A DNA stretch of 42,124 bases from a virus (taxonomy: Duplodnaviria; Heunggongvirae; Uroviricota; Caudoviricetes): the IMG/VR virus record IMGVR_UViG_2909282993_000003, positions 1 through 42,124 of that record; one strand, written 5' to 3'. The notes below the pieces were generated by a model. It had not been told where the DNA came from, ran no database searches, and saw only the letters and a list, made by a program, of their open reading frames with translations. Both the position numbers and the translations under genes were made by a program. This document shows positions 3,983 to 42,124 of this stretch, piece after piece (the stretch's first letter is position 1; every line of letters begins with the position of its first letter).

Positions 3983-4174
3983 TTAAAGACCTGCCGGGAT
4001 TTCGTTATTATCCTGGTGAATAACTTTATCGACCGGGTAACAGTTACCGGGAATTTTCTGTTCGGTTGCTGCAGTCATACATTCCTGCATTGTCCTGTGA
4101 ACACTGACTGCAATATCAACTGGCTCTCCGGAAACAAGATAAACTGTCAGAACAAGCGCAAATGCTGAATTCAT
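3983..4174 (-). CDS. ydfD: YdfD-like small protein (Qin prophage lysis-associated protein)
   Basis: 63-aa product MNSAFALVLTVYLVSG... with hydrophobic N-terminus; start overlaps dicB stop by 4 nt (ATGA-type coupling), as in the dicB-ydfD arrangement. Confidence 0.7.
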   Translation of the reverse strand: MNSAFALVLTVYLVSGEPVDIAVSVHRTMQECMTAATEQKIPGNCYPVDKVIHQDNNEIPAGL

Positions 4175-4359
4175 TGTGCACATCCTTTTGGCATCAGACG
4201 TAAACGAGCCAGCATTGAAACAATGCATATTTTATTTAATAGCTCCCGTTCTTGTTTTCTCTTGTTAATGGCATCTTCAGTAAATACTGGGTTACTGATA
4301 GTGACACCAATTTCAAAACAACCTTCAGACGTATTAACGTTTGGTAATAACGTTTCCAT
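4171..4359 (-). CDS. dicB: Cell division inhibitor DicB
   Basis: 62-aa product METLLPNVNTSEGCFEIGVTISNPVFTEDAINKRKQERELLNKICIVSMLARLRLMPKGCAQ, which matches my recollection of E. coli DicB nearly residue for residue; sits about 170 nt downstream of the DicF sequence. Confidence 0.85.
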   Translation of the reverse strand: METLLPNVNTSEGCFEIGVTISNPVFTEDAINKRKQERELLNKICIVSMLARLRLMPKGCAQ

Positions 4360-4528: not shown

Positions 4529-4586
4529 AAAAAGGGCGGCAGAGCAGTCACGGAGTAAAACTGATACCGCTAAACGCCACCAGAAA
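4529..4586 (-). ncRNA. dicF: DicF small RNA (ftsZ-targeting antisense sRNA) with intrinsic terminator
   Basis: Reverse complement reads TTTCTGGTGGCGTTTAGCGGTATCAGTTTTACTCCGTGACTGCTCTGCCGCCCTTTTT, differing at about two positions from the DicF sequence I recall; ends in a GC stem plus U-run. Confidence 0.85.
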
Positions 4587-5773: not shown

Positions 5774-5902
5774 TCAGCCGTTAGATTTTGCCGAGCTGGA
5801 AAGCGCCCGTTTAAATTCGCTGAAGCTGAGAGCTTCTTCGCCTTCGGCAAGGCCTTCGAAGTATTCTTCGTAAGCCTTTTCCATGATTGTGTCGAAATCC
5901 AT
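5774..5902 (-). CDS. ydfB: YdfB-like small protein (42 aa)
   Basis: Found by manual translation (MDFDTIMEKAYEEYFEGLAEGEEALSFSEFKRALSSSAKSNG); below the 60-aa cutoff of the ORF track; 129 nt, same size and position as Qin ydfB; start abuts the ydfA stop. Confidence 0.5.
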   Translation of the reverse strand: MDFDTIMEKAYEEYFEGLAEGEEALSFSEFKRALSSSAKSNG

Positions 5903-5903
5903 A

Positions 5904-6059
5904 TCACTCACCTGAGTTTCTTTCCAGCCAGCGACGGGCACCATTTTCGGTTTTAAACGTTTTGCTTTTGGTATACGTCATCGCGGTGAACGTACCGTCC
6001 TGGTTGGGGAACACGCCACATACCAGAGATTCGCTGTTGCCAAGATCGATAGTATCCAT
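5904..6059 (-). CDS. ydfA: YdfA-like small protein (51 aa)
   Basis: Internal Met of the 5904..6215 ORF gives MDTIDLGNSESLVCGVFPNQDGTFTAMTYTKSKTFKTENGARRWLERNSGE, matching recalled YdfA in size and sequence. Confidence 0.6.
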   Translation of the reverse strand: MDTIDLGNSESLVCGVFPNQDGTFTAMTYTKSKTFKTENGARRWLERNSGE

Positions 6060-6251
6060 GCTGACCTCATTTCCCCTTAACGCCGGGGTAGCGGAACTGT
6101 TTGCGGAGAACACCGTGCGGTGTATTGATGGAGGTAATTTAGTTTTCTCATTATTTTTCGTCAAGGTTTTTTGATGAGAAAACTCAAGTATTGGCGCAAG
6201 ATAAAGCCAATACATTGAAATGTAAGGCTTTAAAATTTTGTGAAGGGATGA

Positions 6252-6659
6252 TTATTGATGCTTGTTGCGTTTGCGAGCCTCTAATAGCTCGGTGAACAGG
6301 CGATTAAAATTCTCAACGCGGGCGCGGAGTTCGCTGAGTTGTGCTTGTTGCTCTGATTTAGGAAGTGCGCGATACAAACGCATCATCTCTAACTCATCTT
6401 CCGATAAGTCTAGGGTACTATCGAGTGAAACAGGGGGAGCTGGTGTTTTGTCCTCGTCGCCAAACAGTATCCAGGTTGGTGAACATTGCAATACCTCGGC
6501 GAGGCGATGCAAATTTTGCCCGCGCGGGGCTGTATGGTCACTTTCCCATAATGAAATTGATGAGCCAGATACGCCAGCAGCTTTGCTTAAACCGTTTTGA
6601 CTTAAGCCTACCTGCTTACGTCTTTCTCTAATGCGTTGACCTAAAGTTTTCTCGTTCAT
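6252..6659 (-). CDS. dicA: HTH-type repressor DicA (XRE family, cI-like immunity repressor)
   Basis: 135-aa product from the internal Met MNEKTLGQRIRERRK...; LQCSPTWILFGDEDK and C-terminal ...LRARVENFNRLFTELLEARKRNK match recalled E. coli DicA closely; divergent from dicC. Confidence 0.9.
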   Translation of the reverse strand: MNEKTLGQRIRERRKQVGLSQNGLSKAAGVSGSSISLWESDHTAPRGQNLHRLAEVLQCSPTWILFGDEDKTPAPPVSLDSTLDLSEDELEMMRLYRALPKSEQQAQLSELRARVENFNRLFTELLEARKRNKHQ

Positions 6660-6736
6660 ATTTAGATATCTTAATAACCCTTGACTTGAGATTCCTTGAG
6701 TGATTAGCATTGAGAAAACTCAATATTGGAGGTGCG
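6660..6736. promoter_or_regulatory. Divergent dicA/dicC promoter-operator region with imperfect palindromes
   Basis: Intergenic segment between divergent repressor genes; contains ATTTAGATATCTTAAT (palindromic core AGATATCT) abutting the dicA start and TTGAGAAAACTCAA (5-bp arms TTGAG/CTCAA) next to the dicC ribosome-binding site. Confidence 0.45.
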
Positions 6737-6964
6737 ATGTTTAAATCAGACGTAATTAATTTTTACGGTACGAAAGCCAAAGTAGCGAAAGCTGCTGGCG
6801 TTGACCCATCTGCTGTTTCTCAATGGCAAGAGCTCGTTCCTGAAGGTCGCGCGATGCGTCTACAGGAGGCATCTGGCGGGGAGCTTCAGTATGATCCCAA
6901 AGTTTATGACGAATATCGTAAGACGAAGCGGGCGGGGCGGTTGAACAATGAAAATCACTCCTGA
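6737..6964 (+). CDS. dicC: Cro-like regulator DicC
   Basis: ATG at 6737 preceded by GGAGGTG; product ends ...LVPEGRAMRLQEASGGELQYDPKVYDEYRKTKRAGRLNNENHS, matching recalled DicC. Confidence 0.85.
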   Translation: MFKSDVINFYGTKAKVAKAAGVDPSAVSQWQELVPEGRAMRLQEASGGELQYDPKVYDEYRKTKRAGRLNNENHS

Positions 6965-7469
6965 ACAGGCTCGTGAGGCTCTGGATGCCTGGATATGTCG
7001 ACCAGGAATGACACAGGAGCAGGCGACGATATTAATCACTGAAGCATTCTGGGCTTTGAAAGAGCGCCCGAACATTGATGTTCAGCGTGTCACATCTGAA
7101 GGTGGCGTGGTTGATCAGCGAGCGCTTGGCGTTAATCGAGTGAAGATATTCGAACGCTGGAAGGCTATCGACACTAGGGATAAGCGTGAAAAGTTCACAG
7201 CGCTAGTGCCTGCAATTATGGAGGCTATCCGGATTAATGATTTCAGGTTGTATCGTGAAATTAGTGACGGAAAAAGCATCACGTACATGATCGCCGGGTT
7301 AAACAAAGAATATGGCGATGTGGTGGAGTCCGGACTGCTTTTTGCTGATCCTGCCGTAGTGGATCGTGAAACTGACGAACTTATAGAAAAAGCAATTGCT
7401 TTCAAACTTGCGTATCGACAGCAATACCAACAAAAAGCTGGATGGAATTATGAGCCTTCTTTTTGCTGA
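6948..7469 (+). CDS. Hypothetical early protein (173 aa) in the cII/ydaT position
   Basis: ORF immediately downstream of the cro-like gene, overlapping its stop by 17 nt; no confident family assignment. Confidence 0.5.
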   Translation: MKITPEQAREALDAWICRPGMTQEQATILITEAFWALKERPNIDVQRVTSEGGVVDQRALGVNRVKIFERWKAIDTRDKREKFTALVPAIMEAIRINDFRLYREISDGKSITYMIAGLNKEYGDVVESGLLFADPAVVDRETDELIEKAIAFKLAYRQQYQQKAGWNYEPSFC

Positions 7470-8415
7470 ACGCCCACTGGTTATAAACACACAGCTTGCG
7501 ATGAAGATTGGCTTAAATGAAGCCATTGTGTTGCAGCAGTTGCATTACTGGTTGAGAGATACCAATTCCGGCATGGAATGTGATGGTGTTCGCTGGATTT
7601 ACAACACAACGGAACAATGGCTGGAACAGTTCCCATTCTGGTCAGAGTCAACGTTAAAGCGCGCGTTTGCAAGTCTGAAAACGCTGGGGCTCTTGCGTTG
7701 TGAAAAGCTCAATAAATCAAAGCGCGATATGACCAATTTCTACACGATTAACTATGGGAGCGAGCTTTTAGATGATGGCAAATTGAGCGAATCCATCGGT
7801 TCAAAATGCGCCGCTCCATCAGGTCAAAATGACACGATGGAAGAGGTCAAAATGAAACGCTCCATTGGTTCAAAACGACCCAATGTCATCGGGTCAAAAT
7901 GGCCCGATGATCCTACAGAGAATACAACAGAGATTACTACAGAGAATAAAAACACTTTTCGTCCGGAAGCTTCGCAACCGGACCCGCAGACGGCTGAACA
8001 GGATTTTTTAATCCGGCACCCTGGCGCAGTTGTGTTTAGTGCGAAAAAACGCCAGTGGGGTAGCCAGGAGGATCTGGCGTGTGCGCAGTGGATATGGGGG
8101 CGGATCGTGGGTCTCTACGAACAGGCCGCCAGTGATGATGGCGAGATCATGCGACCAAAAGAGCCTAACTGGACTGTCTGGGCCAATGATGTGCGCACAA
8201 TGCGGATGCTGGATGGCAGAAGCCACAGACAAATTTGTGAAATGTTTGGTCGGGTACAGCGGGATCCGTTCTGGGTAAAAAACATCATGAGCCCGTCAAA
8301 GCTCCGCGAAAAATGGGACGAACTGGTCATCCGCCTGGGGCGTTCACCTGTACAGCGTTGTGTTAATCATATTTCTGAACCGGATACAGAAATTCCGCCT
8401 GGTTTCAGAGGATAA
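7450..8415 (+). CDS. Replication initiation protein (lambda O-like) containing the origin iterons
   Basis: N-terminal segment LAMKIGLNEAIVLQQLHYWL resembles the DNA-binding N-domain of phage initiator proteins; five direct repeats lie within the coding sequence and encode the repeated SIGSK peptide; AT-rich stretch follows. Start could alternatively be the upstream TTG at 7396. Confidence 0.7.
   Translation: MSLLFAERPLVINTQLAMKIGLNEAIVLQQLHYWLRDTNSGMECDGVRWIYNTTEQWLEQFPFWSESTLKRAFASLKTLGLLRCEKLNKSKRDMTNFYTINYGSELLDDGKLSESIGSKCAAPSGQNDTMEEVKMKRSIGSKRPNVIGSKWPDDPTENTTEITTENKNTFRPEASQPDPQTAEQDFLIRHPGAVVFSAKKRQWGSQEDLACAQWIWGRIVGLYEQAASDDGEIMRPKEPNWTVWANDVRTMRMLDGRSHRQICEMFGRVQRDPFWVKNIMSPSKLREKWDELVIRLGRSPVQRCVNHISEPDTEIPPGFRG
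7793..7902 (+). repeat. Iteron array (5 copies, about 23-bp period, consensus TCCATCGGTTCAAAATG): candidate ori
   Basis: Direct repeats at about 7793, 7816, 7844, 7862 and 7887, followed by AT-rich ACAGAGA-type repeats at 7910-7960; same organisation as lambda ori inside gene O. Confidence 0.7.
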
Positions 8416-8878: not shown

Positions 8879-9130
8879 TGAGATTAAAGTTTATTAGTTC
8901 AGATATTGATTGGCTCTTTTGTGGAGTAGGGTAGAGTTAGTGTGTTTGTCTGCTTGGTGCCAGCAGCGGATATGTTTAACAACAGAAAGCATTCAGCATG
9001 GTTAGTGGATTTGCAAAGTGGATTAGGATTTGAGAAACTTTGATGAAGTTGTAAAGCTTGTTTCTATAAAAATAGAAATTTAACTAATAGTTAAACACAC
9101 CTCCAGCTTCATTGAAAAGGATTATTAGCT

Positions 9131-10030
9131 ATGATTGATCCACTTATTAGAAACTTACAGAGTGATATTGCACTACTCCAGCTTTATATCGCGCAACGCA
9201 AACAGGCAGGCTTTCATGACATGGAAAGAATAATTGAGTCATTGACCATCTTTATGTTTCGCGCGCTGAAAATGGGTGAACTGGTAAACATGAATCAGAT
9301 TAAAGTTAATTTTCCCGCCATTGATTTAGCTGATAATAAAAACATGATAGCAGTTCAAGTTACTACGAATGCAAGTCCAGCAAAAATTAAAAAAACTATC
9401 GAATCTTTTGATGAAACAAATGAAATAGGAGAGAGTCTGAAAGATAAATACTCTACTTTATATATTTTTGGTTTTTGTAAAGCCTCAAGATACCTAACTC
9501 CAAGTTATTGTAAAATAATCGACCCCAGCTATTTCGTGAATGAACTTTGCGATAAAGCAGATGAAGATATGGTCCAGGATATGATTGACGCCATTCGACG
9601 CCATCATGATTATACATCATTACATCCATGGAGTGATAAAGATTCACTCGAAATTATACTCAATATTATTAATCGCAATGCAATAAAACATCGGATGAGT
9701 TGCGAAGGCAGTCTGTCTGATATGCTCACTGGTTTAAAAGAAATTAATGAAGTAATTACAAAAGGAACAATTCAACGTAAGCAACGTTCAAAATCGATAT
9801 CTGACTTCAAAGATCAAAGCATGGTGAAATTTATGAGAGGTGTAATGGATGATTTGTCTGTTATTCAAGCCATAGTGAACAAATCTAAAGTTAACCAAGG
9901 TGATATGGTTTATATAAGCCATGAAGATATGATTAATATTGATAAATTAAAAGCTAAAATAGCAAGTGATTCATCAGAGATTGCAAGGCTAAATAATATT
10001 GATATAACACTAAATGTTGTTGATTTATAA
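9131..10030 (+). CDS. Hypothetical protein (299 aa) in AT-rich accessory island; possible abortive-infection/defence protein
   Basis: Long uninterrupted ORF in visibly AT-rich DNA, where random stops are frequent; AT-rich promoter-like upstream region; no NTPase motif; contains an Rx4H tetrad (RNAIKH) that may or may not be HEPN-like. Confidence 0.7.
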   Translation: MIDPLIRNLQSDIALLQLYIAQRKQAGFHDMERIIESLTIFMFRALKMGELVNMNQIKVNFPAIDLADNKNMIAVQVTTNASPAKIKKTIESFDETNEIGESLKDKYSTLYIFGFCKASRYLTPSYCKIIDPSYFVNELCDKADEDMVQDMIDAIRRHHDYTSLHPWSDKDSLEIILNIINRNAIKHRMSCEGSLSDMLTGLKEINEVITKGTIQRKQRSKSISDFKDQSMVKFMRGVMDDLSVIQAIVNKSKVNQGDMVYISHEDMINIDKLKAKIASDSSEIARLNNIDITLNVVDL

Positions 10031-10344
10031 TTGTCGATTTAGCAAAACAGAGAATGCTTTGAAAGTTTCACCGAGAAATATTTATTGTGAACCTCCTTAT
10101 TGTTTATCGACTTTTACTCTCCGCTCATTGCAGTACTGTCGGAGAAGGCTACTATGTACAAGAAGCAGCTAACATAAGCGAGCATCACTATTGATATTAG
10201 GAAGAGTATATAAAAACTTCATGCTGAACCTTACAAAAGTAGGTAAACCGGCAATGGCCTAAGTGGCAGGGTCATGTTGATCCGGCACTGCCGAGCTAAT
10301 AATTAACAAGCAAATCACTCTTTCTAATAATTTGTTGAAATAAA

Positions 10345-11004
10345 CTAAATATGTATATGTTTACCAACAACCACATATGAACTACCTGCTTTGCTCCATG
10401 ATTTTATTATTTCTAAATTATTATCTGAGCATATTTTACTTACAGTATCCACATCTAATAAACCATAGTAGAAAGCATTACGAGAGTTTTGGTATATATA
10501 CCCATGCAAATGTTTAATACCGCTCTCGTACCTCTTGAAATAAGAACTTTTGTATTGATTGACAATCAGTGCTTCACCATCACTCTTTAATAATTTTCTA
10601 ATCGCACTGAGGACTTTGTGAATTGTGGATTCACATGGAATTGCGGAAAGCACGTTTGCGCAAAGTATGAAATCATAATGATTTGTTATTTTATCTATAT
10701 TTTCATAAGAAACAATATTAGCATTCTTATAGTTATTTATCACGTAATCTGGAATCGTGGTTTGTACACCTCTGATAATTTGCACTCTTTCTAGTTGTCT
10801 TCTGGAATCTAAAAATGTCACAGTTTCAAATTTATTTACTAATTGTTCTGAATATCTAAGTTTTCCACATCCAAAATCAAGGGCATTGCCATTTTTATTA
10901 GTGCTTTCAATCTGTTTACAGAGATAGTTAGATGGCATAGTGTGCGGTTTCGCTGCATTTTCTGAACGTATGTTTATTCCATTTATTTTGTAATTCAAAA
11001 TCAA
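10345..11004 (-). CDS. Class I SAM-dependent methyltransferase-like protein
   Basis: 219-aa ORF with motif I ALDFGCGKL (GxGxG), downstream acidic and hydrophobic motif YDFILCANVL and LKSDGEALIV, consistent with a Rossmann-fold methyltransferase; AT-rich; 6-nt gap after the upstream membrane-protein gene. Confidence 0.8.
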   Translation of the reverse strand: MILNYKINGINIRSENAAKPHTMPSNYLCKQIESTNKNGNALDFGCGKLRYSEQLVNKFETVTFLDSRRQLERVQIIRGVQTTIPDYVINNYKNANIVSYENIDKITNHYDFILCANVLSAIPCESTIHKVLSAIRKLLKSDGEALIVNQYKSSYFKRYESGIKHLHGYIYQNSRNAFYYGLLDVDTVSKICSDNNLEIIKSWSKAGSSYVVVGKHIHI

Positions 11005-11010
11005 CCTCGT

Positions 11011-11718
11011 TTAAAAAATATTGTTATTGTTAAAGAATTCTTTTATTTTGCTATCAGGTATTTGTCTTACTTGGCTTTCTGTTCTTGGTTTAACTGATGC
11101 TATGAAAATAAGGAAGTCAAATGCGACAAGAGAAATAATCCACAACCAAAGATTAATTAAAGAGCCAGTAACAGAGAATATATTTGTTAATTTGGCGATA
11201 CTTATTATTAAAATAGTAACAAATGCGATTACTGTATGTTCAAAGAAAACCCAAAAGTAATAAACTTTGTTCCAGAAAAGTTCAACGTAATGTTTGTCTT
11301 TTAACTCTTTAACTTCTGGGTAATACAGTTTACTCATTACCTTGTGAGATTCTTCAGTAGTTAATTTTCTCGTAACGCCTGCAATTTTTGCTAATGGTTT
11401 AATAATTAAATGACTATCCCACATCTTCCTTATTTCAATAATTTTTGCTACATTATTATGTAGATCTAAAGCTCCACTAATTACTGACCAAAAAACTGAA
11501 GATGCAATTGGTAATATGCCAAAGGTTAATATCCATTTAATAAATTCCTCGTAGTCTTTAACGGGGGGGATATACTTGGCATTAATGCCAACCAATGGCA
11601 TGTAGCCATAAATGACTAATGATAGGTAAAATATAAATGTAGTAATAAAAGTCGCCTTATGGAGCATAGGCAACATTTCATTATAACTCTTTGGTGGTTC
11701 TAACATTTTACTCTCCAA
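11011..11718 (-). CDS. Integral membrane protein (about 4 predicted TM helices), first gene of an operon with the methyltransferase
   Basis: 235-aa ORF with four long hydrophobic segments (two N-terminal, two C-terminal) around a central soluble region of about 80 aa; AT-rich; same strand as, and tightly linked to, the methyltransferase. Confidence 0.75.
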   Translation of the reverse strand: MESKMLEPPKSYNEMLPMLHKATFITTFIFYLSLVIYGYMPLVGINAKYIPPVKDYEEFIKWILTFGILPIASSVFWSVISGALDLHNNVAKIIEIRKMWDSHLIIKPLAKIAGVTRKLTTEESHKVMSKLYYPEVKELKDKHYVELFWNKVYYFWVFFEHTVIAFVTILIISIAKLTNIFSVTGSLINLWLWIISLVAFDFLIFIASVKPRTESQVRQIPDSKIKEFFNNNNIF

Positions 11719-12448
11719 ACATTCAAAAAAAAGCTAATCTTCTATAATAACGAAATTCAGCTGGCACAATTAAAGATTAATTGCCACCAATTTCTTGATT
11801 TTATAATTTTATCTAAATGTTTTTGATTAATCTAGTCCTAAAAGAAACCTACTGCATAAATATTTATGCTGATGACCCACTCCCTGTTCGTTAACACATA
11901 GCAACGTTAGTAATGCATCCTAAGTGATCAATATTTTTGCTAGCTTCATCTGCTCGCTCAAAGGGAACTATAATGTTGGCTTGCGTGTGACTTGGCATGT
12001 TTAAAGAAGTGCTGGTGGTGACTGGTTGCTGTTTTCCATTTCCACAGAACAAAATCATAGAAACTATACCCAGTAGTTGTATTGAATCACTGACGAGACA
12101 GCCTCATATTTATCAGGACTGGTGTACGTCCAATACAGGAGGTTGTGGTGCTGGTTCTCAAATGTGCGCTGGCTATTGCTGCTGTAATGGCAATTTATTG
12201 TCTTGCTGTTGTTCTTATGGATCACCTTTCTGATTGATTTCATATTGGCGAGGTAACGGTAGTTAAGTAGAATTGCTGCGGGTGCTTGAGGCTATCTGCC
12301 TCGGGCATCAACACCAAAGGCAGATAGAGAAAAGCCCCAGTTAACATTACGCGTCCGGCAAGACGCTTAACATTAATCTGAGGCCATATCTATGCTCTAC
12401 ACACGTAGGTTAGCCTCTTACGTGCCGAAAGGCAAGGAGAAGCAGGCT

Positions 12449-12604
12449 ATGAAGCAGCAAAAGGCGATGCTAATCGCCCTGATCGTCATCTGTTTAACCG
12501 TCATAGTGACGGCACTGGTAACGAGGAAAGACCTCTGCGAGGTACGAATCCGAACCGGCCAGACGGAGGTCGCTGTCTTCACAGCTTACGAACCTGAGGA
12601 GTAA
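12449..12604 (+). CDS. hokD: Hok/Gef family type I toxin (HokD/RelF-like)
   Basis: 51-aa product MKQQKAMLIALIVICLTVIVTALVTRKDLCEVRIRTGQTEVAVFTAYEPEE, a typical Hok single-TM peptide matching recalled HokD; upstream 9-bp perfect hairpin at 12292-12327 and a downstream GC hairpin plus intrinsic terminator, typical of hok mRNA folding elements. Confidence 0.85.
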   Translation: MKQQKAMLIALIVICLTVIVTALVTRKDLCEVRIRTGQTEVAVFTAYEPEE

Positions 12605-15739: not shown

Positions 15740-15815
15740 GGCCCTTTAGCTCAGTGGTGAGAGCGAGCGACTCATAATCGCCAGGTCGCTGGTTCAAATC
15801 CAGCAAGGGCCACCA
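15740..15815 (+). tRNA. tRNA with CAU anticodon (Ile2/ileX-like or Met)
   Basis: 76-nt cloverleaf folded by hand: acceptor GGCCCTT/AAGGGCC, D arm GCTC/GAGC, anticodon loop CTCATAA, T loop TTCAAAT, 3' CCA encoded; closely resembles recalled host ileX. Confidence 0.85.
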
Positions 15816-15816
15816 A

Positions 15817-15893
15817 CCGCCACTGGCTCATCAGGAAAGAGCGTCAACCCTTTAAGTTGAGTGTGCGAGGTTCGAGTCCCCGGTGGCGGTCCA
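15817..15893 (+). tRNA. tRNA-like gene, anticodon ambiguous (loop CCTTTAA; reads UUU with a non-canonical C33); possibly degenerate
   Basis: Acceptor CCGCCAC/GTGGCGG, D arm GCTC/GAGC, T loop TTCGAGT, CCA encoded; T stem has one mismatch; anticodon loop lacks the conserved U33. Confidence 0.5.
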
Positions 15894-15895
15894 GT

Positions 15896-15971
<76 letters not shown>

Positions 15972-15974
15972 TAT

Positions 15975-16049
<75 letters not shown>

Positions 16050-38844: not shown

Positions 38845-38855
38845 GTGGGGTGGAT

Positions 38856-40685
38856 ATGGCAGCAGTAAAAATCTCAGGTGTGCTGAAAGATGGTGCGGGA
38901 AAACCAATACAGAACTGCACTATTCAACTGAAGGCAAAACGTAACAGCACAACGGTTGTGGTGAACACGGTGGCCTCAGAAAATCCGGATGAAGCTGGAC
39001 GTTACAGCATGGATGTTGAGTATGGTCAGTACAGCGTCACCCTGTTGGTTGAAGGTTTTCCGCCTTCACATGCCGGGACCATTACCGTTTATGAAGGTTC
39101 CAGACCAGGTACGCTGAATGATTTTCTGACTGCCCCCGACGAAGGCGACCTGAAGCCAGATGTGGTGAAACGATTTGAAGATTTGACAAGTCAGGCGCAA
39201 CGAAGTGCAGATGTGGCAATATCAGCGACAAAAAGGGCAGAAGCGTTACTGTCTGAAATGCAGGGAATAGCCGATAGTTTTCCCGGTTTGCGCTTTGAGA
39301 ACTTTGACGACATCGTGAGTCGTTGCACTACTGCAATGTTAAAACTGGAACAACCCGAGGTTGTTAATACATCAATATCTTTAAAAATAAAAGAAAATAT
39401 CGATTTTAATTATGTCGGTGCAGTTAACGGATATTGCGATATTTCTGAACCAGAAAAGTATAAAGTCGAAATGTATGCTTATACAACCGGAGAGTATTTT
39501 AACGGCGACGCTAATTTGAATAGTGACGGAACTTTCTATTTCAGACGTTGCTGGACGGGAGCAAAACAGTTTCGTCTTATTCGGATTGAGGATAATGTGT
39601 GGATCACAACGCTGGAGTTTCCACTGCTCATTCGTAGCTACTGGATGCCGGAGGACGCAGACCCCGAAGTGATCAGGGTGATGAAAGATCGGTGTTACAC
39701 GTATGACCAGGCGCTGGCAGCACTGGCGTTGATGGTTCAGCGACATGAGGCTGTAGAAAGATACGTTGCGGGCTTGTGTGCGCTTGTTGATGAAAACGGT
39801 GGAGTAAAGTTTTTTGTTAACAGGCTGTCTGCCATGTCACCGCGTACCTATTACCGCTTGGGCAATGCGGCATGGGTTTATTATGCTCTTGCTTTCTATC
39901 TGGAGAAGTATCCGGACGGTACTCAGACTGCGCGGGTCAGAGAAAAACTATTGGCAGGCATTGCCTGGCTGGATACTTTTCTGGTGAGCACACCAGGCGA
40001 CCTGCGTGAAGGCCTGTATAAAGGGGGGCAGGGGCGTTATGTGGACGGCAATTTTGATGAAACTTTTGTCGCCGAATGGTGCGCACTGGAGCATAACGTT
40101 GATATCTGGTTTTTGTTTGAACTGATGGGACGGCTGGGATTTGACGGTTTCAGTGAGCGGGCTGACAGGCTGGCAAAGAGCATCATCAGAGGTCTGTGGG
40201 TGGAAGATGAAGGCCGATTTCGACAGGGGGTTCATTCAACCCACTATGACAACGCAGCGGCGCTGGATCAGTCTTCCTGGGGCGGATTGTTTGTTGCCAA
40301 TATTGATGCTGAGAAAGCGGCTAAGTGCCGAAAATATATGGGGCGTTTTTTATTTGGTACGAGGGAAACCACGGGTTACACACCGTACCACCCTGATTAT
40401 GGTTATAGTGGTCACAGCCGTGGCGTGTGGGTGGAAGGAACGGCAGGTGTGGCACTTTTTGAGCGCAAGCTGGGTAATGAGCTGAATGCGGTGAATCTTG
40501 TGGCAGCAATGGCTCCACTTTTTAATGAGTACGGTTATCGTGATTCTTGCGATGACCCGGCATACGATGTGCTGCCTTCCTGGTCATCAACAACAAACAC
40601 TGCCTGGATCATTCTGGCTGTAAAGCCAGATAATTTCTGGTTAGTGGATTCGCCAGAAATGGATGTAGGGACAATCCGCTATTGA
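38856..40685 (+). CDS. Side tail fibre protein: lambda Stf-like N-terminal anchor fused to a non-lambda C-terminal domain (possible alpha/alpha-barrel glycosidase-like depolymerase)
   Basis: First about 100 residues (MAAVKISGVLKDGAGKPIQNCTIQLKAKRNSTTVVVNTV...YGQYSVTLLVEGFPPSHAGTITVYE) nearly match recalled lambda Stf; the rest lacks the Stf Ala/Ser-rich repeats and is rich in Trp/Tyr/Phe motifs (AWVYYALAFYL, WCALEHNVDIWFLFELMG, SSWGGLFVA); an AT-rich stretch at about 39370-39550 marks a mosaic junction. Confidence 0.8.
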   Translation: MAAVKISGVLKDGAGKPIQNCTIQLKAKRNSTTVVVNTVASENPDEAGRYSMDVEYGQYSVTLLVEGFPPSHAGTITVYEGSRPGTLNDFLTAPDEGDLKPDVVKRFEDLTSQAQRSADVAISATKRAEALLSEMQGIADSFPGLRFENFDDIVSRCTTAMLKLEQPEVVNTSISLKIKENIDFNYVGAVNGYCDISEPEKYKVEMYAYTTGEYFNGDANLNSDGTFYFRRCWTGAKQFRLIRIEDNVWITTLEFPLLIRSYWMPEDADPEVIRVMKDRCYTYDQALAALALMVQRHEAVERYVAGLCALVDENGGVKFFVNRLSAMSPRTYYRLGNAAWVYYALAFYLEKYPDGTQTARVREKLLAGIAWLDTFLVSTPGDLREGLYKGGQGRYVDGNFDETFVAEWCALEHNVDIWFLFELMGRLGFDGFSERADRLAKSIIRGLWVEDEGRFRQGVHSTHYDNAAALDQSSWGGLFVANIDAEKAAKCRKYMGRFLFGTRETTGYTPYHPDYGYSGHSRGVWVEGTAGVALFERKLGNELNAVNLVAAMAPLFNEYGYRDSCDDPAYDVLPSWSSTTNTAWIILAVKPDNFWLVDSPEMDVGTIRY

Positions 40686-41132: not shown

Positions 41133-41801
41133 CTATTTTTTCCCTGAAGCGGAAAACATTACTACAGTACCTTTAATCTTGGTTTTAACATTCTCGAAAT
41201 GCTCTGAGAGTATATGTGTTAAGCCTTCTTCGGAATCTTTTGTGTTTGAAAAGATGCCTTTTTGATTGTAAATGCGCATCAGTTTTTGACCGAAGCTATT
41301 GTGCACAACGCCGTCACCAAGAATTGTGGCTCCGTATAGAGTTCCATCGTCAGTTAAGGCCTGCGCCGCATTGCGTATTACACAGCTTTTTGTAGATATA
41401 TTTCCAGGCAGGCAGTGAAGAAGGTAAAACATGGAAATGGAATCAAATTGACCATGTAATGCCGCGGGATAAGGTTCAAAAACATCATGGCTAATTTTAT
41501 GTTTAATTTTTGATTCCCCAGCCCTTGTCGATGCCGCGTTCAGGCTAGCTTCGTTCAAATCCATTAAAGATATCAGACTACTCTCAGGTACGTGAGTAAG
41601 GTAAAACCCAGTTCCAACACCAATATCCAGATGGTTGTTACCTAAATGTTCCAGAAAGTGTGGAAGAAGGTGTTCCTTTGTAGGACATCCCCATGCAAGC
41701 CGATTTGATACTCCCAAAACCCACCAGTCATAAAGCTTTAGGGTAAGTGGTGTGTAAATTTTAGCCCCATCATCTGTGTTTTTTTTCATTAATTTCACCA
41801 T
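41133..41801 (-). CDS. Class I SAM-dependent methyltransferase (moron at the tail-fibre end)
   Basis: 222-aa ORF with motif I HLDIGVGTGFYL and downstream Rossmann-type motifs; opposite strand to the tail genes; AT-richer than the flanks. Confidence 0.8.
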   Translation of the reverse strand: MVKLMKKNTDDGAKIYTPLTLKLYDWWVLGVSNRLAWGCPTKEHLLPHFLEHLGNNHLDIGVGTGFYLTHVPESSLISLMDLNEASLNAASTRAGESKIKHKISHDVFEPYPAALHGQFDSISMFYLLHCLPGNISTKSCVIRNAAQALTDDGTLYGATILGDGVVHNSFGQKLMRIYNQKGIFSNTKDSEEGLTHILSEHFENVKTKIKGTVVMFSASGKK

Positions 41802-41857: not shown

Positions 41858-42124
41858 ATGCTGCCGCAGCATAGCGATATTGAAATAGCCTGGTATGCTT
41901 CGATACAGCAGGAGCCGAATGGCTGGAAGACCGTCACCACACAGTTCTACATCCAGGAATTCAGTGAGCATATTGCGCCACTTCAGGATGCTGTAGATCT
42001 GGAGATCGCAACGGAGGAAGAAAACTCGTTGCTGGAAGCCTGGAAGAAGTATCGGGTGTTGCTGAACCGTGTTGATACATCAACCGCACCTGATATTGAG
42101 TGGCCGACTTCACCTGCAGAGTAA
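41858..42124 (+). CDS. Tail fibre assembly protein, C-terminal portion (likely 5'-truncated tfa)
   Basis: 88-aa ORF ending ...[36 protein letters not shown], the conserved Tfa C-terminus; shorter than a typical Tfa (about 190 aa). Confidence 0.6.

Follow-up and report, generated by a model that had tools for sequence, protein, structure and literature searches.

The window analyzed here is a stretch of 42,124 nucleotides (nt), positions 1–42,124 of the virus record IMGVR_UViG_2909282993_000003 (Caudoviricetes), and the locus under study lies at positions 10345–11718. This segment is wholly occupied by two co-oriented open reading frames (ORFs), both on the minus strand, which encode a membrane protein similar to YmfE and a class I S-adenosylmethionine (SAM)-dependent methyltransferase similar to YmfD of Escherichia coli K-12. 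When the longest ORFs are taken, the membrane gene is at 11011–11718 (235 amino acids (aa), TTG start) and the methyltransferase gene at 10345–11004 (219 aa, TTG start), and the gap between them is 6 nt. The true starts however are likely the ATG at position 11706 and a second TTG at position 10998. The ATG has a GGAG (11713–11716, read from the sequence) six nt before it, within the 5′ leader of the membrane gene at 11707–11718, and the homologs have N-termini of the form MLEPPKSY. The second TTG has the Shine-Dalgarno sequence GAGG (11005–11008, also read from the sequence) six nt before it, and the M-[RH]-Y start of distant methyltransferase homologs aligns with this position. The Prokaryotic Genome Annotation Pipeline (PGAP) places the starts at exactly 11706 and 10998 in the chromosome of strain F9792 (100% identical). 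The membrane gene probably does not start at the in-frame TTG at 11718. With starts at 11706 and 10998 the YmfE-like protein (11011–11706) has 231 aa, as drawn from the ORF, PGAP coordinates, homology, hydropathy and an AlphaFold2 (AF2) model, the YmfD-like protein (10345–10998) has 217 aa, and the gap is therefore 12 nt (10999–11010). An initial annotation made from the nt sequence had described, without naming the strand, co-oriented genes with the membrane gene first and a gap of 6 nt; orientation and order stand, whereas the gap holds only for the longest ORFs.

The intercistronic spacer with its Shine-Dalgarno sequence indicates one operon and makes translational coupling of the two genes probable. 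At other loci the genes usually abut or overlap by 4–20 nt. A scan of the minus strand for promoters and terminators gave nothing convincing, and no consensus sigma-70 promoter is seen upstream of the pair. Both ORFs are taken to be genuine genes and not chance ORFs, because they are long for AT-rich DNA and have protein homologs across phyla. In E. coli 55989 (L001, 12146–12739) the PGAP methyltransferase is only 197 aa long and begins at an internal ATG, while in F9792 (L071, 10345–10998) it is 217 aa from the TTG. The shorter call is probably a mis-annotation, because it loses an N-terminal motif that is conserved across phyla.

By BLASTP the membrane protein displays 59% identity to K-12 YmfE (b1138) over 232 aa (E = 3e-108), and the methyltransferase displays 68% identity to K-12 YmfD (b1137) over 214 aa (E = 7e-114). 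Both alignments are full length, and that of YmfD includes the N-terminal extension. By these comparisons the locus is a diverged copy, or new allele, of the ymfE-ymfD module of e14, the cryptic prophage of E. coli K-12. The e14 genes have the same order and strand arrangement, with the membrane gene first, however the gap is 0 nt in K-12 compared with 12 nt in the window, and the two alleles have about 69% DNA identity. Both pairs are found in a prophage accessory region next to a defense gene, which is Lit in e14 and a SMEK-domain protein in the window; the SMEK neighbor is absent from e14. The e14 pair is next to lit and intE and is att-proximal, whereas the window pair is located between the replication and nin regions of a lambdoid phage integrated at ompW.

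A ymfD deletion has been reported to reduce early biofilm (PMC3105296), and the K-12 ymfD deletion of the Keio collection grows like the wild type and shows no specific role in N6-methyladenosine (m6A) formation in mRNA (PMC12096079). The literature on ymfD and ymfE consists of incidental mentions, the biofilm phenotype and the negative m6A test, and assigns no function. The view of the initial annotation, that neither of its proposed roles is established for this architecture, thus needs a correction, as the architecture has precedents in the e14 ymfE-ymfD pair, known but uncharacterised, and in the tehA-tehB layout.

Of 5426 complete E. coli genomes, 146 have copies of the window pair that are at least 99% identical, with both ORFs intact. 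When the e14 allele is included the pair is found in 434 of the 5426 genomes, as two alleles that are always chromosomal, and it is accessory. YmfE-like genes, with identities of 62% and 37%, are also found in two E. coli plasmid records of about 15.2 kb, OR902851.1 and OR902858.1; these records are of the same size as e14 and may represent prophages excised as circles.

The YmfE-like protein has four hydrophobic segments by hydropathy, at about residues 21–41, 59–80, 159–177 and 187–205. The loop between transmembrane segments 2 and 3 (TM2 and TM3) is 78 residues long and contains 13 Lys/Arg residues, and the C-terminal tail contains 5. Because of this Lys/Arg distribution (the positive-inside rule), the topology is predicted to be N-in/C-in with a cytoplasmic TM2-TM3 loop. 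The AF2 model is all-helical (predicted local distance difference test (pLDDT) 88.7, predicted template modeling score (pTM) 0.82), and the assignment of a four-TM membrane protein in the initial annotation is supported by the hydrophobic segments and this model. Among 53 diverse homologs the best conserved part is not the membrane helices but the region directly after TM2, a helical domain at about residues 81–150 that is predicted to be cytoplasmic and displays the motif S-x3-L-H-[DN]...I-R-x2-[FW]-D...I-[LI]-x-P. An F-W...E motif at the start of TM3 is also conserved among them. The protein does not belong to any family in Pfam, NCBIfam, PHROGs or PADLOC. No sequence match is present in PDB, and its structural relatives in PDB and BFVD are only generic helical hairpins. 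An exhaustive profile search found only 217 representative clusters, nearly all of 220–250 aa.

The YmfD-like protein scores above the cut-off for the Pfam families Methyltransf_12, _23 and _11, and also for TehB (24.0 bits compared with 20.4). Its scores for the two NCBIfam TehB equivalogs are however 28.7 and 28.3 bits where the cut-offs are 218 and 303, and matches to the OvoA C-terminal domain, BioC, PmtA and NodS in NCBIfam are weak and all far under cut-off. Conserved motifs are motif I (L-D-F-G-C-G-K-L-R-Y-S), D66-S67, C-x-N-V-L-S-A-I-P and N-Q-x-[RK]-[SN]-S-Y-F, together with a family-specific N-terminal motif, I-R-S-E-N-A-A-K-P. These are retained from E. coli to Firmicutes and Acidobacteria, and none of the SAM-binding residues varies within the family. 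Motif I of the D/E-x-G-x-G form, the acidic residue D66 at the end of beta-2 and the Rossmann fold are those of a class I enzyme, as the initial annotation had it. The AF2 model is a compact Rossmann fold (pLDDT 89.3) with no extra domain and its structural neighbors are small-molecule enzymes; sequence and profile searches of PDB gave no match.

The protein could have been a fragment of a DNA methyltransferase, a possibility raised with the initial annotation, but this is rejected. It has no catalytic motif of the [DNS]PP[YFW] (N6A/N4C) or PC...ENV (C5) kind and in fact no PP dipeptide at all, its 217 aa hold no target-recognition domain, the restriction-modification (RM) methylase models of PADLOC do not match it, and the neighbors of its fold are of the small-molecule type. 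Intact and probably active, the enzyme falls into a distinct subfamily of non-DNA methyltransferases and is of the small-molecule (TehB/Methyltransf_12/23) type. The homology search proposed earlier for finding the class of substrate leads to the small-molecule type; the specific NCBIfam families all fall below cut-off.

A profile search with the methyltransferase, taking one genome per species, gave 61 loci, 59 of them with enough flanking sequence. They are distributed over more than ten phyla, including Gamma- and Alphaproteobacteria, Bacillota, Actinomycetota, Planctomycetota, Acidobacteriota, Nitrospirota, Verrucomicrobiota, Dormibacterota and Gemmatimonadota. By the membrane-protein profile, a YmfE-like ORF directly adjoins the methyltransferase on the same strand at all 59 loci. 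The membrane gene is first at 43 of these and second at 14, and at two the pair is a single ORF. Clustering of the flanking ORFs showed no other family common to more than four loci. The distance matrices of the two proteins correlate (r = 0.71, Mantel p = 0.001). Because of the strict synteny, the lack of a third common family and the correlated distances, the pair is, on this comparative evidence, a self-contained and horizontally mobile unit whose members move and diverge together. The concern that the two genes might not co-occur in other genomes is removed by their adjacency at every informative locus.

Some loci show additional features. Three short contigs of 2.4–3.0 kb, labeled 'Candidatus Scatousia', 'uncultured Haemophilus' and 'Streptomyces sp.' (L003, L004 and L005), have the pair at 85–99% identity to the E. 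coli copy and are probably mis-binned or contaminant enterobacterial DNA. Three Acidobacteriota loci have a conserved gene between the membrane and methyltransferase genes (L033 5447–6025, L040 5529–6038, L041 1596–2063). Its product, 155–192 aa long, has no Pfam family and displays HLWA-YVRGFN and NNLHL-LE as motifs; the gene may be a third component peculiar to this lineage. In L067–L070, from Aeromonas and metagenomes, two same-strand genes (229 and 204 aa, no Pfam match) precede the pair, e.g. L067 at 5846–7244.

The neighborhood of the pair is rich in genes of mobile elements and of defense. The commonest Pfam families among the 140 nearest flanking ORFs are resolvase (6), phage integrase (3), recombinase (3), ResIII (3), SMC_N (3) and HamA (2). 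Small serine recombinases, which have been proposed as markers of defense loci (PMC13552941), flank the pair in three phyla. In Yersinia the pair is found between two prophage integrases, and in Aeromonas it is on an integrase island with Fic/DUF4172 and a ParS/MbcA-type module. A Vibrio cholerae contig (L064) has the pair at 6360–7693 (209 and 216 aa) amid ParDE, Phd/YefM-ParE, DUF3709 and acetyltransferase cassettes, an arrangement typical of a superintegron-type cassette array. Other loci have a phage tail gene, a type IV secretion system coupling protein or housekeeping genes at the insertion border.

Known defense systems, complete or in part, adjoin the pair in diverse bacteria, e.g. Olokun OloA and OloB in Microbulbifer, Lamassu LmuB in Pseudomonas simiae, Gabija GajA and GajB in Eubacterium multiforme, and a type III RM system in an Acidimicrobiia metagenome-assembled genome (MAG). 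McrBC and SMEK flank the pair in a Pectobacterium integrative and conjugative element (ICE), SMEK is found with a GT4-conflict glycosyltransferase and an integrase in Salmonella, and Lit is the neighbor in e14. Further examples are LmuA (L008), a type II C5 methylase (L009), a partial match to a DrmD-like protein (L022), RmrA (L038), Hachiman HamA/HamB at two loci, most likely L011 and L017, and type I HsdM and a Schlafen/AlbA_2 ATPase (L049, L061). Altogether at least 16 of about 56 non-redundant inspected loci have a known or defense-related gene within two ORFs, when SMEK, RmrA, the partial DrmD-like match and Schlafen are counted as defense-related; about 10–12 of these loci have components of established defense systems. 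For comparison, one study of E. coli gives 2% of all genes, and 17% of known defense genes, as having a known defense gene at most ten genes away (PMC13092281).

A fusion of the YmfE-like protein with a TIR domain at its C-terminus (TIR_2, E about 4e-21) is seen at two loci, one in a Binatia MAG and the other in a Terriglobales MAG. The fused proteins (L056 671–3214 and L058 6674–7846) keep the four TM segments and the family motif, which are followed by the TIR domain; in L056 this is followed in turn by one more TM segment and by an Lcl_C domain. The methyltransferase gene is directly upstream at both loci. The TIR domain would be cytoplasmic, because the predicted topology is C-in. TIR domains are signature effector and signaling domains of bacterial immunity.

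The defense-island and mobile-element context, together with the TIR fusion, leads us to regard a role of the pair in defense against phages or mobile genetic elements as somewhat the better supposition. Strict synteny in either gene order, the lack of a third conserved gene, the co-divergence, and the conserved cytoplasmic domain with the intact catalytic site suggest a two-component module at the cytoplasmic face of the membrane. In the proposed mechanism, the YmfE-like protein would span the inner membrane by its four helices, with the N- and C-termini and the conserved helical domain of 70 residues on the cytoplasmic side. The methyltransferase would dock on this domain, and the pair would act as one unit at the cytoplasmic face. 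The unit would serve in inter-genome conflict, most likely by protecting the lysogen from other phages or from mobile DNA. The methyltransferase would be the arm that senses, marks or makes a signal, and the membrane protein would be the effector arm that perturbs the membrane, with the fused TIR NADase as a reinforcement in some lineages.

This division of labor, where the enzyme senses and the membrane protein kills, is favored by analogy with Pycsar, CBASS and Rex, in which the effector, multi-TM or TIR, is under the control of a cytoplasmic protein. Pycsar (PycC with PycTM or PycTIR), CBASS with TM effectors, RexA with the four-TM RexB, and Kiwa all combine a cytoplasmic protein with a multi-pass membrane partner, sometimes with TIR, and are found on prophages and in defense islands as is YmfED (PMC13069673 and general knowledge). 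The analogy is however functional only, as there is no sequence or fold similarity and the YmfED enzyme is a methyltransferase and not a nucleotide cyclase. Of the roles put forward in the initial annotation, that of a sensor/effector pair is the one favored by the defense-island and mobile context and the TIR fusions, at the level of sequence context.

A more far-reaching proposal, which we put forward tentatively and consider rather doubtful, is that YmfE-YmfD represents an undescribed cross-phylum immune system based on methyl transfer. Infection would lead to a methylated small-molecule signal, or to a methyl mark that is kept or lost, e.g. when phage SAM-degrading enzymes deplete SAM. The cytoplasmic domain of the four-TM partner would read the signal or mark, and cell death or arrest would follow by way of the membrane or the TIR NADase.

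Several observations weigh against a defense role. The count of at least 16 loci with defense neighbors is semi-quantitative, as the first ten loci were picked for large adjacent genes and only nearest neighbors were inspected. Several loci are bordered by housekeeping genes (aconitase B, MutS, AlaRS), and guilt by association also fits other mobile cargo, e.g. resistance or addiction genes. The two TIR fusions are in close relatives and probably represent a single fusion event. None of the isolated phages in INPHARED has the membrane protein. In PADLOC-DB v2.0.0 the membrane protein has 0 matches and the methyltransferase matches only mad2 (8.2e-5), in the Rossmann core. The literature searched does not tie ymfED or any homolog experimentally to phage resistance. 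Finally, the single-ORF form in Bradyrhizobium has, ahead of the methyltransferase, no more than TM2 and the cytoplasmic motif, with TM3 and TM4 lost, and may be a decay product; on hydropathy, its value as clean proof of interaction was downgraded.

With no PADLOC v2 match for the pair apart from the weak one to mad2, membership of a defense system catalogued there is rejected. The entries in the accessible parts of the DefensePredictor text and supplements do not include the accessions of the pair. RM systems, MADS and PD-lambda-5 also have a SAM methyltransferase in a defense context, and the mad2 core match (8e-5) is a weak likeness, but YmfD has no DNA-methylase motif or target-recognition domain, no universally linked nuclease, and a membrane partner. 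PD-lambda-5 and Toutatis, which contain methyltransferases too, are distinct systems.

The alternative that fares best, although it seems clearly less probable than defense, is methylation of a small molecule or lipid in the manner of TehAB. Methylation at the membrane would act on a toxic anion, on a metabolite, on a quinone or on the head group of a phospholipid, the four-TM protein would be a channel, a substrate presenter or an anchor, and the benefit would be resistance, altered physiology or a change of the envelope. The tehA-tehB genes are an established operon in which a membrane protein is followed by a SAM methyltransferase. YmfED has the same order, with a membrane gene and then a class I SAM methyltransferase of about 200 aa. 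Likeness to TehB is seen in the marginal Pfam score given above, in motif I (G-C-G-x-x-R-x-S) and in the Y-D-F-I-L of the beta-4 region, as read from the sequence; the weak NCBIfam matches to TehB, the OvoA C-terminal domain, BioC, PmtA and NodS tend the same way, however the score of about 28 bits for the TehB equivalogs (cut-offs 218 and 303) and those for the other specific families are far too low for membership. The membrane partners differ more. TehA is a 10-TM protein of the TDT/SLAC1 type, whereas the window protein has four TM segments and no family match, and YmfE is without similarity to TehA or any transporter family. Resistance genes are frequent in integron cassettes and on mobile elements, and lowered early biofilm after ymfD deletion (PMC3105296) is also in keeping with methylation of this kind. 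Methylation in the manner of TehAB leaves unexplained the TIR fusion, which has no TehAB counterpart, and the repeated occurrence of the pair beside Gabija, Olokun, Lamassu, Hachiman, RM and McrBC in defense islands and mobile elements.

The change of envelope polysaccharide or lipopolysaccharide (LPS), or the masking of receptors, suggested in the initial annotation is unlikely as a general role. Bacillota, Actinomycetota and Planctomycetota have the pair, and a cytoplasmic location is predicted for the methyltransferase and for the conserved part of the membrane protein. As monoderm phyla are among those with the pair, modification of LPS or O-antigen would not be general, and no Pfam or PHROG family of the phage seroconversion and LPS modules (Gtr, Oac) matches.

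A toxin-antitoxin or addiction module that stabilizes the mobile element, with a membrane-damaging toxin checked by the methyltransferase or the reverse, is improbable, and the toxin/immunity pair of the initial annotation is likewise unlikely. The pair is a tightly coupled, two-gene mobile cassette; in Vibrio its neighbors include ParDE and cassettes of the Phd/YefM-ParE type, in the window it adjoins hok/sok, and small multi-TM proteins are often toxins. The Keio ymfD deletion however grows like the wild type (PMC12096079), and therefore YmfE would not be a toxin that requires YmfD at native expression. Both gene orders and one-polypeptide forms exist, the catalytic and SAM-binding site is invariant where a mere binding antitoxin would not need it, and the proteins, of 217 and 231 aa, exceed the size usual in type II modules. 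Least probable of all is that the pair is inert hitch-hiking cargo with no current selected role in the window prophage. In favor of this, biofilm is the sole known phenotype, the low-GC DNA is by its composition probably silenced in E. coli, and the minus strand shows no consensus sigma-70 promoter upstream of the pair. Against it, the two ORFs are intact and keep at least 99% identity over the 146 E. coli genomes, each protein is conserved across phyla and has invariant motifs, and strict synteny persists despite changes of gene order.

The window is annotated as a complete lambdoid prophage that reaches from the integrase and excisionase genes through the tail fibers, and the equivalent prophage in E. 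coli 55989 adjoins ompW. The composition profile displays a low-GC insert of about 3 kb at about 8900–12000, with 30–34% GC compared with roughly 50% for the phage DNA. The insert holds the SMEK gene and the pair; at its left is the replication region (DUF977 gene) and at its right are sok/hokD, rem, DUF968, rusA and Q. Transcription of the pair runs counter to the early-right operon, an orientation typical of a moron, and the designation as a prophage moron in the initial annotation agrees with this and with the low-GC insert in a complete lambdoid prophage.

The convergent neighbor of the pair is the SMEK-domain gene at 9131–10030 on the plus strand, which encodes 299 aa (Pfam SMEK_N 2.5e-22, NCBIfam 1.1e-30, PADLOC Aga_REase-PNTD 1.4e-20). 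SMEK is described as a nuclease effector domain of short-Argonaute systems (PMC10810196). The domain is N-terminal, and the C-terminal 180 aa have no assigned domain. The block of SMEK and pair is also found in a Salmonella prophage and in the Pectobacterium ICE (L075–L080), with 86–88% identity for SMEK and 78–85% for the pair. The gene is absent from e14, from Yersinia and from all non-enteric loci. SMEK as an obligate third component is rejected, as it is confined to the E. coli, Salmonella and Pectobacterium sub-clade; it may be a lineage-specific accessory or an independent, stand-alone defense gene.

On the other side of the pair is a type I toxin-antitoxin locus on the plus strand, with sok antisense RNA (12280–12454, Rfam 114 bits) and hokD, together at 12280–12604. 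It is divergent from the membrane gene, and a 730-bp AT-rich spacer separates them. A cell-division inhibition module of Qin/Rac-type prophages is present on the minus strand, with the DicF small RNA at 4534–4585 and dicB and ydfD at 3983–4359. Four tRNA genes (Ile, Lys, Thr, Gly) are found at 15740–16049 on the plus strand, just downstream of the Q antiterminator. Strain 55989 has Ile, Arg and Arg at this site, and also a Ser/Thr kinase and a PP2C phosphatase after Q that are absent from the window.

A second class I SAM methyltransferase is encoded at 41133–41801 on the minus strand (222 aa; Methyltransf_12/23/25/11). It has no membrane partner and is located at the right end of the prophage among pseudogene fragments of tail-fiber assembly genes, with an Rfam IS009 match adjoining at 41881–42084. 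The two enzymes have no sequence similarity and a paralogous relationship to the YmfD-like enzyme is rejected. A tail-fiber-like ORF at 38850–40685 on the plus strand is intact with 611 aa, and a tail-fiber-type N-terminal domain is followed by about 470 aa. Of this ORF, PGAP marks only 38856–39272, as a truncated pseudogene.

The literature searched was not found to describe the cross-phylum synteny, the embedding in defense islands or the TIR fusion, although an earlier discovery is possible. The ymfD and ymfE genes are among the remaining E. coli K-12 genes with no assigned function and now carry a concrete, cheaply testable hypothesis. If the pair is not protective, the TehAB-like alternative leaves a defined biochemical question, the identity of the methyl acceptor. 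If it is protective, this would account for the presence of the pair beside Lit in e14 and beside the SMEK gene in the ompW-site prophage of 146 of 5426 genomes, and it would add a defense system with a non-DNA methyltransferase as its enzymatic arm. To our knowledge such an arm is not represented among characterized defense systems. Immunity based on methyl transfer, if true, would represent a new signaling or guard chemistry in bacterial immunity, and one present in E. coli K-12 itself.

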